Of a stretch of DNA of 40,873 nucleotides, positions 8,900 through 11,008 are shown one piece after another. Numbering within the stretch: the stretch's first letter is position 1; each line of letters begins with the position of its first letter. The DNA is from a virus (lineage: Duplodnaviria; Heunggongvirae; Uroviricota; Caudoviricetes): IMG/VR virus record IMGVR_UViG_2609460344_000022; one strand, 5' to 3'. The notes under the pieces were generated by a model. It had not been told where the DNA came from and made no database searches. It was given only the letters and a program-made list of their open reading frames with translations. The position numbers were made by a program, and so were the translations under genes.

Positions 8900-8931
8900 G
8901 AGGAAAAGAAAACCCGGCGCTGAGGCCGGGC
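8900..8931 (-). terminator. Intrinsic terminator ending the kinase operon
   Basis: Minus strand: CCCGGC-CTCA-GCGCCGGG hairpin followed by TTTTCTTTT immediately after the small ORF stop. Confidence 0.6.
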
Positions 8932-9095
8932 TAGATTTTAAAGTATTTATCTTTTAGAGATGTAGATGTAAAATTTTTCGCCTTTGAAAATTTTTTGTCA
9001 TCAGAAGGGCTTATGAACTCATCTTTTTTGTAGGGAACCGCTAATGCTGCATCACGTCTGCGAGGCAGCTTGCTTACTTCCTCGCGCTTTTTCAT
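8931..9095 (-). CDS. Small basic protein (54 aa), translationally coupled to kinase
   Basis: ATG 2 nt after kinase stop (TAATCATG) with AAGGA SD inside kinase 3' end; Lys/Arg-rich (MKKREEVSKLPRRRD...); not in ORF track (<60 aa). Confidence 0.4.
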   Translation of the reverse strand: MKKREEVSKLPRRRDAALAVPYKKDEFISPSDDKKFSKAKNFTSTSLKDKYFKI

Positions 9096-9097
9096 GA

Positions 9098-10144
9098 TTA
9101 GTTATCCTTTAATAACCTATACAGTTTTGTAGGGGTACATCCTGAGGATATTGTTAAGTTCGTAGCACGCCTTTTCCGCCCATCATCGTATAAACGAAAA
9201 CCAGTAGTAGACGAATTTTCTGCGTCAAAAACTATAGACAGTATAGCGTCCCCAGACTTTTTTTGCCATTCGCATGTGCCGTTAGTTGGTTTCGTCATCT
9301 GTAGACGCCAGTCAAGAACGCCATCACTTATAGCTGAGAGATCGTTTAGTACATCTAGTACTGATTGATATCTTTCATTTGGATCTACATGAATGCATTT
9401 GTTTACTATTGTTATCAATTTTTTATGTATATGGGGAGGATATTCTTTTAATGGATAGCAGCCATTAATTATCGACTCTCTGAGTTGTTCAATCGTGCTA
9501 AATGCAGATCTTTCTCTTTCAAAATTATCATGTCCAACACACATTCTATATATGGTTAATCCTGCCTGATATATGTCATATGTGAAATTATAATCATTTG
9601 TTGATAAAGAAAAATATTCCGGTGGCACATGAAAATGATATCCAAACTCAGGCGCAGCTCTCGATTCCTCATTGACTAACTGAGATAATCCAAAGTCAGA
9701 TAGCATGGCCTCATTTCTGTTTGATATCATGATGTTATTAGGTTTTATATCAAAATGCATAAGACCTTTTGAGTGTATATGATAAAGTCCACTTAAAAAT
9801 TGAATAGAATACCGTATTATCTCCCTGCTTGTAAGATTATTTTTTTTCATTAATTGGTTTAGCGAACCATTATGATAAAATGGCATGGCTATATAGATAT
9901 TGCTCTCACATTGAGCAGCATACTGAACTTGCACAATATTTGGATGTGCATGTTTATAGAGAAGCCTTGCTTCATTAAAGTAGTCGTCGTGGTTAGTGTT
10001 TTCTTTTTTTTCTATTTCTTTAATCACCAAGTCATGAGCTAGGTGTCTGTCATGAGCCAGATATACTTTTGAAAAACAACCCTGTTCTTCTAGATCACGA
10101 ATCCATTCGAATTCTACATCAGCTCTTTTGTATGGAGTTAGCAT
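9098..10144 (-). CDS. Eukaryotic-like Ser/Thr protein kinase (Stk-like)
   Basis: 348 aa; catalytic loop HFDIKPNN, DFG motif (SDFGLS), beta3 Lys (VIKEI); strongly AT-rich; located between cI and pL. Confidence 0.8.
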   Translation of the reverse strand: MLTPYKRADVEFEWIRDLEEQGCFSKVYLAHDRHLAHDLVIKEIEKKENTNHDDYFNEARLLYKHAHPNIVQVQYAAQCESNIYIAMPFYHNGSLNQLMKKNNLTSREIIRYSIQFLSGLYHIHSKGLMHFDIKPNNIMISNRNEAMLSDFGLSQLVNEESRAAPEFGYHFHVPPEYFSLSTNDYNFTYDIYQAGLTIYRMCVGHDNFERERSAFSTIEQLRESIINGCYPLKEYPPHIHKKLITIVNKCIHVDPNERYQSVLDVLNDLSAISDGVLDWRLQMTKPTNGTCEWQKKSGDAILSIVFDAENSSTTGFRLYDDGRKRRATNLTISSGCTPTKLYRLLKDN

Positions 10145-10599
10145 CCCCTTACCTCCGCAGATAGTGCAGCCAAAACAGCTTCATTTGTTTCAGTTGTAAA
10201 ACCAGAATTATCGATTCCATTTATATTGCGGTGTGACTTCAATATTTCTTTATACTCGATCTCTGTTAGGTTCAATGATGATTTCATGCCAGATTTTCTA
10301 ATAGTGTAATATCTTCTTACATCACTGCTTGAAAATGCTTCTTGAATAACAGCTTCTATATAAAGGCGGTCAATGCTAAGATTATCAGAGTTTGATTCAG
10401 TAACGCGTATGGCAGCTAATTCAACATTATATAAATTAAGAATATCGAGGATGTTATTTCTCACATACTTTAACTTTTCTGGTGTGTCTAAGGTCGAAGG
10501 TATTTTAATAACATCAACACATTTGAGTGCAGACTCATTAGTGCAATATACAACAAAAGATGTAACTTTGGGCGCCGCTCTAACACCTAGTATTCTCAT
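10138..10599 (-). CDS. Hypothetical kinase-partner protein
   Basis: 153-aa ORF overlapping kinase start by 7 nt (translational coupling); AT-rich; no recognized motif. Confidence 0.55.
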   Translation of the reverse strand: MRILGVRAAPKVTSFVVYCTNESALKCVDVIKIPSTLDTPEKLKYVRNNILDILNLYNVELAAIRVTESNSDNLSIDRLYIEAVIQEAFSSSDVRRYYTIRKSGMKSSLNLTEIEYKEILKSHRNINGIDNSGFTTETNEAVLAALSAEVRGC

Positions 10600-10666
10600 T
10601 TTTTATATCCTATTTTAGAATCAGGCCGCATCTCTGCGACCATCCATCATCCAAACGTCTCTTCAC

Positions 10667-11008
10667 TCATCCGAAGAAGCAGCAATCCGGGTCAGCACGC
10701 ACAAGCTCAAGCGCATCAGTCAGCGAAAGTTCAGTACTGTACTGATGCCATTTCATATCCTTCCGCATCCAATAGATTTTCCATCTATCCAGAGAACGTA
10801 TGTACTTGATTCTTGCTGATGGCAGGATGTTTGTTTCACCTGGATTGCCCTGCCACACGGGGCGCTGTTCGCCGATATCTATCGTTTGGTCATTGATGCT
10901 ATAAACAATATCCAGTTCATTGCGGATATGTTCAGGCGGCCTTATGCTTTCAATGAATTGGTTAACTTCTTTTTTGACCGCTTGATATTCAAGGTCAGTG
11001 AACGCCAT
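10667..11008 (-). CDS. Hypothetical protein downstream of cI
   Basis: 113-aa ORF between cI and the kinase pair, same strand. Confidence 0.5.
   Translation of the reverse strand: MAFTDLEYQAVKKEVNQFIESIRPPEHIRNELDIVYSINDQTIDIGEQRPVWQGNPGETNILPSARIKYIRSLDRWKIYWMRKDMKWHQYSTELSLTDALELVRADPDCCFFG

Follow-up and report, generated by a model that had tools for sequence, protein, structure and literature searches.

The window analysed here is a stretch of 40,873 nt from a tailed phage (Caudoviricetes; IMG/VR record IMGVR_UViG_2609460344_000022). On its minus strand, between the cI repressor gene and a candidate pL promoter, i.e. in the slot that corresponds to that of rexAB in lambda, as the earlier note had proposed, are four open reading frames of 113, 153, 348 and 54 aa, all found where that note had placed them (Table 1). 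The block is flanked by cI (a Peptidase_S24 protein), cro, cII and N; N is the first gene of the pL operon and forms the far border of the slot. The locus is an accessory operon of the immunity region of a 933W-type lambdoid prophage of Escherichia coli. HMM searches, which had been suggested for all four open reading frames, assign the 348-aa protein to Pkinase, the 113-aa protein to DUF3024 and the 54-aa protein to PHROG 4063, and leave the 153-aa protein below the threshold of the RuvC family.

Table 1. Genes and signals from N to the cI-cro interval (positions in the window)
Feature	Position	Strand	Remarks
N antiterminator	8049..8432	-	Pfam N_peptide E=6e-14; 98% identical to 933W N
nutL core	8599..8617	-	nutR sequence (12154-12172) in inverted orientation
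candidate pL (TTGCCA-17-TAAAGT) and two OL operator repeats	8681..8726	-	
intrinsic terminator of the pRM transcript (933W tM)	8911..8932	-	GC-rich hairpin followed by a T run
54-aa basic protein (933W L0081)	8931..9095	-	gene 3 of the cassette; PHROG 4063 E=3e-39
348-aa Hanks-type kinase Stk	9098..10144	-	Pkinase E=2e-46; ~100% identity to 933W stk
153-aa RuvC-fold partner (933W L0083)	10138..10599	-	gene 1 of the AT-rich cassette
19-nt direct repeat, copy 2	10647..10665	-	immediately 3′ of the DUF3024 stop codon
113-aa DUF3024 protein (933W L0084; PADLOC candidate PDC-S43)	10667..11008	-	separate single-gene module
19-nt direct repeat, copy 1	11018..11036	-	between cI and the DUF3024 gene
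cI repressor, 234 aa	11069..11773	-	Peptidase_S24 E=4e-16; opens the pRM transcript
OR/pRM/pR region (cI-cro interval)	11774..11886	.	between the divergent cI and cro genes

The layout is that of a single transcription unit, which runs from pRM through cI, the DUF3024 gene, the RuvC-like gene, stk and the small open reading frame to a terminator, and whose expression in the lysogen would be expected. A Shine-Dalgarno sequence precedes each gene, and the 153-aa and kinase genes overlap by the 7 nt that had been noticed earlier (ATGCTAA, with GGAGG ahead of it). The terminator, also seen earlier, directly follows the stop codon of the 54-aa gene; it is identical to the annotated tM of 933W, and no other terminator is seen on the minus strand between cI and N. 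Within the region there are 11 promoter-like matches, where shuffled sequence gives an expected 11.7; since they are no commoner than in shuffled sequence, no internal promoter is claimed. An Rfam search of positions 7000-13000 found no non-coding RNA. At the distal side, two AATTTATCATT operator repeats accompany the pL-like promoter (8709-8681) and match a site in OR at 14 of 15 nt; an operator-like 15-mer, GCAA(T/A)ATGATAAATT, is common to OL and the OR/pRM/pR region. The nutL and nutR sequences form a 19-nt inverted repeat with 95% complementarity, and the nutL core is inside a stretch that aligns with the annotated nutL of 933W.

The locus is the stk region of phage 933W, a link already drawn in the earlier note. 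The DNA at 8856-11100 is 98.9-99.1% identical to that of 933W, and protein identities are ~100% for Stk, 99% for L0083, 98% for L0081 and 97% for L0084. The two loci also agree in gene order, terminator, nutL and N, and 933W has oR1-3, pM and pR annotated at the position that matches the cI-cro interval here. The two phages differ in the OL/pL stretch (8676-8855) and in the DNA-binding domain of cI. The repressor is a hybrid: in a BLASTP comparison the alignment is confined to residues 81-234, which are 95% identical to 933W cI, and the N-terminal DNA-binding domain is unrelated. The prophage is located at ynfG in a human-associated E. coli strain, whereas 933W is a Shiga-toxin phage; no stx gene is annotated within the 43.9-kb stretch examined. 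Of the complete E. coli genomes, ~4% carry the cassette locus.

The central observation is not new, as Stk of 933W is a published prophage kinase that aborts infection by HK97. [quoted passage not shown] The lambda RexA/RexB pair resembles this arrangement in its position between cI and pL, its expression in the lysogen from pRM and its abortive-infection outcome (PMC3564112). However, Rex has no sequence relation to the cassette and is an ion-channel system, not a kinase, and no Rex model is among the PADLOC, Pfam and PHROG matches for the four proteins. The publications found speak of Stk only, and none explains the 113-, 153- or 54-aa accessory proteins, in agreement with the earlier note.

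The earlier note took the whole block to be AT-rich. This is correct for the 54-aa, kinase and 153-aa genes, which together have a GC content of 35.4% and constitute the lowest 1.67-kb stretch of the window (median 49.3%); the cassette is compositionally foreign, in keeping with the suggested horizontal acquisition. The 113-aa gene, at 45.3% GC, resembles cI (44.3%), and the AT-rich block therefore consists of three genes, not four. The 113-aa protein matches DUF3024 over its full length (Pfam, 109.2 bits with a cut-off of 24.9; PADLOC PDC-S43, E=6e-42), a family that is only a candidate for a role in defence. A profile search of PDB sequences gave no significant match for this protein.

Co-transcription of the four genes, and their adjacency in 933W-type phages, might suggest that they act as one functional system, and in some Proteus-type prophages distant DUF3024 homologues (37-40% identity) are indeed found upstream of the RuvC-like/kinase pair (loci L053, L054 and L058-L061). 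This is nonetheless very improbable. DUF3024 is missing from most cassette loci, including, by tblastn, all 80 genomic ones; it also follows cI or c2 with other cargo (ParA-like, NYN-domain and unknown proteins) and is solitary in Rahnella and Yersinia. In the window a 19-nt direct repeat of its own flanks the gene, in two copies where 0.08 would be expected by chance. The four-gene unit was rejected on the absence of DUF3024 from most cassette loci, the other settings in which it occurs, the cI-like GC content of its gene and the repeats around it, and the DUF3024 gene is, judged by these comparisons, an independent module that neighbours the AT-rich cassette. The defence systems predicted in a 2026 preprint for one O157:H7 strain include both PD-T4-6 and PDC-S43, the two PADLOC labels that the kinase and the DUF3024 protein receive here.

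The 348-aa protein is a Hanks-type kinase, as had been recognized from its HFDIKPNN and DFG motifs (Pfam PF00069, 158.8 bits with a cut-off of 31.7, E=2e-46). It has the VAIK Lys, the alpha-C Glu, the HxDxKxxN catalytic loop and DFG, and residues K42, E58, H130/D132/K134/N137 and D150-F151-G152 are invariant across 28 diverse relatives, as are W279 and W293. With all Hanks catalytic residues kept, the kinase is predicted to be catalytically competent. The kinase domain spans approximately residues 1-270 and is followed by a conserved C-terminal domain of ~75 aa; a profile search of PDB sequences returned generic Ser/Thr kinases, none of which spans this domain. It should be pointed out that the DIKPNN catalytic loop is of the Ser/Thr type, whereas tyrosine phosphorylation is reported in the literature.

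PADLOC matches the kinase domain, and only this domain, with PD-T4-6 and mad6 models (E=1e-37 to 6e-50; best PD-T4-6 model, E=1e-37). Vassallo et al. are said to have described PD-T4-6 in 2022 as a single-gene Ser/Thr kinase defence. The Hanks domain is common to Stk, PD-T4-6 and the Mad6 protein of MADS, but the Stk family differs from both in its own C-terminal domain, its obligate RuvC-like partner and its small third gene, and its architecture is not the single-gene one of PD-T4-6, as a RuvC-like gene is found upstream and, almost always, a small open reading frame downstream. Stk2 of Staphylococcus epidermidis, which belongs to a different kinase subfamily, reportedly (Depardieu and coworkers, in 2016) is a Hanks kinase that leads to abortive infection once a phage protein activates it; we know of no RuvC-like partner described for Stk2.

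The 153-aa protein has the three-dimensional fold of RuvC, yet is below the sequence cut-offs of the family (Pfam PF02075, 14.1 vs 22.2 bits; NCBIfam RuvC, 12.5 vs 163). It differs from the RuvC Holliday-junction resolvase in being only 12-15% identical to it and in being always paired with a kinase. A profile search of PDB sequences gave no significant match, PADLOC has no model for the protein, and no experiment on partner proteins was found in the literature. The acidic tetrad of RuvC (D7, E66, D138 and D141 in E. coli) is not preserved, with the residue equivalences taken from weak alignment. Arg occupies partner position 7 in 111/112 and 139/140 sequences of two sets, i.e. in 250/252, and no sequence is acidic there; E68 and E140 are kept, and position 137 (E137) is variable. 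The alignments are weak (Pfam E=0.04; hhalign probability 1.2%, obtained with an approximate E. coli RuvC query sequence), and the equivalence of Arg7 and Asp7, which was drawn from them and from the position at the end of strand 1, is therefore probable, not certain. With the first catalytic Asp lost and Arg in its place, the partner is probably a pseudonuclease, and is proposed to act as a sensor or regulator. Proteins with a RuvC fold and non-catalytic roles are known, such as mitochondrial TEFM and Spt6/Tex.

Perhaps the roles are the reverse, and the kinase, possibly through its C-terminal domain, is the sensor that phosphorylates a RuvC-like nuclease effector, which then cuts phage or host DNA. 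The fold is genuinely that of RuvC, nuclease effectors are frequent in defence systems, and E68, E140, D52, E82 and E87 show little or no variation; of these, D52, E82 and E87 could make an unconventional active site. But the strand-1 Asp, which binds both metal ions in nucleases of the RNase H fold, is replaced as described above, the second C-terminal acidic position is not fixed, and exclusion by 933W was reportedly linked to broad tyrosine phosphorylation by Friedman et al. in 2011. A nuclease effector under control of the kinase is thus unlikely.

The earlier note had made conservation of the partner and small genes with the kinase a test of its proposal, and both are conserved with it far beyond E. 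coli. The RuvC-like gene and the kinase gene are neighbours in 73/73 viral and 80/80 genomic loci. The genomic loci belong to Gamma-, Beta- and Alphaproteobacteria, Bacteroidota, Ignavibacteria and one cyanobacterium, with kinase identities of 36-57% and gaps of -8 to +4 nt between the two genes. Within E. coli, at least 80% of the cassette is present in 223 of the 225 genomes that contain any part of it. Homologues of the 54-aa protein, the product of the third gene, lie 1-9 nt 3′ of the kinase stop codon in 71 enterobacterial loci, and an open reading frame of similar size and position is present in 73/76 distant loci, as against 27% at random positions; a 50-65-aa open reading frame is almost always found 3′ of the kinase. 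It is basic, as had been noticed, and fast-evolving. HMM searches did not link the small open reading frames of distant clades to the enterobacterial 54-aa family, and hhalign gave only E=0.017. By these comparisons the conserved unit is more than the kinase and comprises three genes, for a RuvC-fold protein, the kinase translationally coupled to it and a basic protein of 50-65 aa.

The surroundings of the cassette vary. Its neighbours include JetC/JetD of Wadjet; in Pseudomonas, Abi_2, a reverse transcriptase gene and an integrase; and in Elizabethkingia, an LlaJI-type restriction-modification system and ArdA. In Acinetobacter prophages it is found at a moron site of the tail region. The three genes travel as a whole among prophage immunity regions, moron sites and defence islands of several phyla.

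These data bear on whether the kinase may be a complete single-gene abortive-infection system similar to PD-T4-6, with the 153- and 54-aa genes as passengers. PADLOC recognizes the kinase and not the partner, the strain of the 2026 preprint is listed with PD-T4-6, and the literature mentions Stk alone. On the other hand, the pair is kept, with overlapping start and stop codons, in all 153 informative loci, across phyla and down to 36% identity; pairwise identities of partner and kinase correlate (r=0.88), i.e. the two co-diverge; and all three cassette genes have the aberrant GC content. As passenger genes would not remain linked over such distances, this reading is disfavoured, and is quite improbable. 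If cloned stk by itself were to exclude HK97, exclusion would not strictly depend on the partner.

A relation of the toxin-antitoxin type might also be considered, in which the kinase is the toxin and either the RuvC-like or the small basic protein its antitoxin, lost by displacement or degradation once infection occurs, without any specific sensing of DNA structure. The layout, with a small upstream gene, a start/stop overlap and a larger growth-arresting enzyme, is of this kind, Stk is silent in uninfected lysogens, and the small open reading frame is basic and quickly evolving. Yet a simple inhibitor would need less than a strictly conserved RuvC fold of 150 aa with its invariant charged residues, and no known antitoxin family is matched; this reading is unlikely. 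It overlaps with the preferred explanation, and the two are hard to tell apart by sequence alone.

The explanation that fits best, and is somewhat probable, is a three-gene abortive-infection module with a RuvC-like sensor or regulator and a kinase effector. The RuvC-like protein would recognize a phage recombinase, or branched DNA made by the recombinase, and would then release or activate the kinase; the active kinase would phosphorylate host proteins, and growth would stop before the phage matures. The small protein may be a further regulator, e.g. an inhibitor or pseudosubstrate. A candidate trigger is gene 41 of HK97, whose product, gp41, was reportedly given a role in the Stk story by Friedman et al. 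in 2011. Gene 41 appears, on gene order only, to be erf, which encodes a single-strand annealing recombinase: the gene between 40 and 42 in both HK97 records is erf (Pfam ERF E=2e-44), with its product labelled 'Gp40' in GenBank. The resident prophage has Bet/Exo/RecE recombination genes instead of erf. It is tentatively suggested, as a possibility, that Stk is the effector of a widespread, undescribed three-gene system in which an inactivated resolvase fold senses Erf-type recombinases or branched DNA and couples this to phosphorylation. This offers a testable answer to the question of why Stk is silent in the lysogen, yet fires upon HK97 infection.

The locus itself adds nothing new, and it is the comparative result, the co-inherited partners, that matters more. 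What looks new relative to published work is the constant RuvC-shaped partner of the kinase together with its tiny third gene; the two strictly co-inherited partners of the 'Stk kinase' have apparently been studied by nobody. They would define a family of kinase-based defence modules that spans several phyla, and of which current tools annotate the kinase alone, as 'PD-T4-6'.

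In the cI-pL slot, the position equivalent to lambda rexAB, the window has three genes encoding a 153-aa protein, a 348-aa kinase (Stk) and a 54-aa protein, together with a 113-aa gene nearer to the repressor. The kinase is of the Hanks type, as an earlier note had proposed, and its ATG is located within the final codons of the 153-aa gene (GGAGGTAAGGGGATGCTAA). The two genes overlap by 7 nt and the kinase start has a good ribosome-binding site, in agreement with the translational coupling claimed there, and the terminator placed after the 54-aa ORF is also found: a GC-rich hairpin and T run begin 1 base past the stop codon. 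The block was described as AT-rich. This is real (35–37% GC in each of the three cassette genes and 35.4% together, the lowest 1.67-kb stretch of the window, where the median is 49.3%), but the block consists of three genes, and the 113-aa gene (45.3% GC, near the 44.3% of cI) is outside it. On sequence grounds, the kinase is catalytically competent, and its gene appears to share a single transcription unit with the repressor gene. The pL-like promoter is set within two copies of AATTTATCATT, a 15-mer of the pL/OL stretch is found again in OR, and nutL and nutR make a 19-nt inverted repeat.

Features of the locus, with accessory genes of the same slot in other loci
Feature	Coordinates	Strand	Basis or remark
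237-aa and 119-aa genes	6941-8045		downstream of N
N	8049-8432	minus	ORF list
OL/pL stretch	8676-8855		unrelated to 933W
pL-like promoter	8709-8681
54-aa ORF	8931-9095	minus	ORF list
348-aa ORF (kinase)	9098-10144	minus	ORF list; Pfam Pkinase E=2e-46
153-aa ORF	10138-10599	minus	ORF list
Direct repeat, 19 nt	10647-10665 and 11018-11036
113-aa ORF	10667-11008	minus	ORF list
cI-like repressor	11069-11773	minus	ORF list
cI N-terminal domain	11534-11773		unrelated to 933W
cro, cII	next after cI-like repressor	plus	ORF list
72-aa ORF	12570-12788
360-aa protein	12809-13891		replication region
Other slot cargo	L004 2517-3374; L002 1801-2874; L003 2371-2892; L181 4910-5814		other DNA loci, local coordinates

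The earlier note pointed to Stk of the Shiga-toxin phage 933W as a related case. Its interpretation was correct, but the locus is in fact the 933W Stk locus and is therefore already known. By megablast against phage genomes, the DNA is 98.9–99.1% identical to 933W, and over 100 Stx phages match at this level; in the 933W annotation the four genes lie downstream of cI as L0081, stk, L0083 and L0084, and the terminator tM is given as ‘for the pM transcript’. Compared with their 933W counterparts, the proteins are ~100% (Stk), 99% (L0083), 98% (L0081) and 97% (L0084) identical. A prophage at ynfG of E. coli strain cM8a is 100% identical to the window. Of 5426 complete E. coli genomes, 225 carry the cassette, and 223 of these have at least 80% of it. 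The prophage differs from 933W itself: neither the cI N-terminal domain nor the OL/pL stretch is related to that of 933W; the 933W-like parts are the cI C-terminal domain, the accessory genes, tM, nutL and N. Immunity specificity is hybrid, with sequence between and beyond the non-933W parts 98–99% that of 933W and a recombination joint within cI near codon 81.

Stk has been described as an abortive-infection kinase (PMC8008677, PMC6356687), silent until HK97 infection, which is then aborted (PMC3681748, PMC3564112). In a 2026 preprint, PD-T4-6 and PDC-S43 are both among the defence systems predicted for one O157:H7 strain; a PADLOC scan here puts the same two labels on the kinase and the 113-aa gene, respectively. 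The earlier note took the functions of the accessory proteins to be unexplained, and a full-text literature search, with two primary papers (Friedman 2011, Tyler 2004) outside its reach, found no paper on L0083, L0081 or DUF3024.

The constancy of the pair argues against one rival explanation, that the kinase acts alone; another rival is that the module has a toxin-antitoxin-like inhibitor. Scanning viral contigs with a partner alignment yielded 75 loci. Downstream DNA was available for 73, and each of these has an Stk-family kinase directly after the partner, with partner identity down to 36%. A kinase alignment applied to one genome per species gave 80 loci (kinase identity 36–57%) from Pseudomonas, Acinetobacter, Vibrionaceae, Burkholderiales, Rhizobiales, Rhodobacterales, Bacteroidota, Ignavibacteria and a cyanobacterium. 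Each of the 80 has an ORF that matches the partner HMM (full-length ORFs E<=1e-49) and whose end meets the kinase start, typically with gaps of -8, -7, -4, -1 or +1 to +4 nt. Partner and kinase pairwise identities are correlated among 117 unique pairs (r=0.88), with equal mean divergence. Adjacency and co-divergence together mark an obligate two-protein unit.

A small third gene is a general feature of the module, as indicated by its frequency. At 71 loci in Enterobacterales, homologues of 53–59 aa start 1–9 nt past the kinase stop; in a four-sequence alignment identity falls to 29%, with a conserved P-x-R-R...A-x-A-x-P-Y core. At the distant, non-enterobacterial loci (L094–L169), 73 of 76 have a 40–90-aa ORF starting within 30 nt of the kinase stop, vs 27% at random positions. 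These ORFs, of 50–65 aa, share an N-terminal K-N-x-x-x-Y-x-T-R-A-like motif, and their HMM matches only post-kinase ORFs among ~7600 small ORFs. An example is at L122 6050-6232. Evidence that the two groups are homologous amounts to a hint (hhalign E=0.017). Public gene calls are patchy (called at L171 and L177; missed at L170, L172, L176 and L178).

Sequence tools are equivocal on the 153-aa partner. Pfam RuvC gives E=0.04, below threshold; PHROG 3875, which it matches, is named ‘RuvC-like’, and NCBI annotates it as a ‘RuvC family protein’. A rival explanation is that the partner is a real nuclease effector. The partner retains E68 (RuvC E66) and E140, but the invariant residues of the family disagree with the RuvC catalytic set. 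The residue that ends strand 1, position 7, is matched to catalytic Asp7 by both Pfam and hhalign; these alignments are weak, the hhalign one being to a provisional E. coli RuvC sequence, and the equivalence is therefore probable. Arg occupies position 7 in 111 of 112 unique partners (Lys in the other) and in 139 of the 140 sequences that represent 50%-identity clusters; position 137 is variable. An exhaustive profile search gave 449 cluster representatives, and the best 150 are nearly all stand-alone proteins of ~150–165 aa.

The 113-aa protein is DUF3024 (E=2e-31), a PADLOC single-gene candidate, and is treated as an independent module in a variable cI-pL hotspot. Most cassette loci are without it. 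Elsewhere it follows cI or c2 with different cargo: a ParA-like ATPase in Salmonella phage ST160, a 173-aa unknown protein in Stx2 II and VT2-Sakai, and an NYN-domain protein in LC616031. In Rahnella it is found by itself at one end of a prophage, and in Yersinia by itself close to smpB, where integration is known to occur. The gene is flanked by a direct repeat (plus strand, TCA[T/C]CCAAACGTCTCTTCA; copies 371 nt apart), which may be a module junction or insertion scar; its 15-nt core occurs in single copies at the cI 3′ end of HK97 and Stx2 II. In its predicted model (pLDDT 90), DUF3024 folds as a helix-sheet-helix sandwich, for which no convincing structural relative was found. The slot acts as a hotspot for accessory genes that vary: in other lambdoid phages its cargo includes an NYN-domain protein, a ParA-like ATPase and uncharacterized proteins such as HK97 gp48 and gp49.

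Elsewhere in the prophage, the 72-aa ORF has two copies of QQPEADWVNP, and the 360-aa protein (‘DNA-binding protein’ in cM8a) has related EQQHQPQQPDAD and an EQEQEQ run; repeats at the DNA level may underlie them. The 237-aa and 119-aa genes have no significant Pfam or PADLOC match, and the 237-aa protein has a Cys-rich CTRCG...CKKC motif. The nin region, seen in cM8a (L014 28513-30190), has hokD, a Doc-family toxin and a RelE/ParE toxin paired with an HTH protein, so that several more toxin-type modules are present in the element.

Neighbourhoods of the pair are typical defence-gene positions. It directly follows prophage repressors in Klebsiella and Proteus, adjoins Wadjet genes in one context, and in Elizabethkingia is beside an LlaJI-type restriction system and ArdA. 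A Pseudomonas island has the pair with an integrase, Abi_2, and a reverse transcriptase gene with its associated PRTase-domain gene; in Acinetobacter prophages it is at a moron site among tail genes.

Friedman 2011 reportedly found that activation requires HK97 gene 41. Both HK97 records have erf between genes 40 and 42. The GenBank AF069529 label ‘Gp40’ for its product (L182 1676-2281) is apparently an error, and the product, with a clear ERF domain (E=2e-44), is presumably gp41, the reported Stk activator. We infer that the kinase would have the RuvC-fold partner as its sensor or regulator and the small protein as a further regulator. The junction-resolvase fold might detect an incoming single-strand annealing recombinase or its branched DNA, a design that is coherent as a hypothesis. 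Recombination genes of the resident prophage are Bet/Exo/RecE, not Erf, and thus self-triggering would be avoided. What remains of interest is the strictly conserved, apparently unstudied partners, a RuvC-like protein that is probably a pseudonuclease and a small protein, and this conservation suggests that Stk is a member of a wider three-gene defence family.
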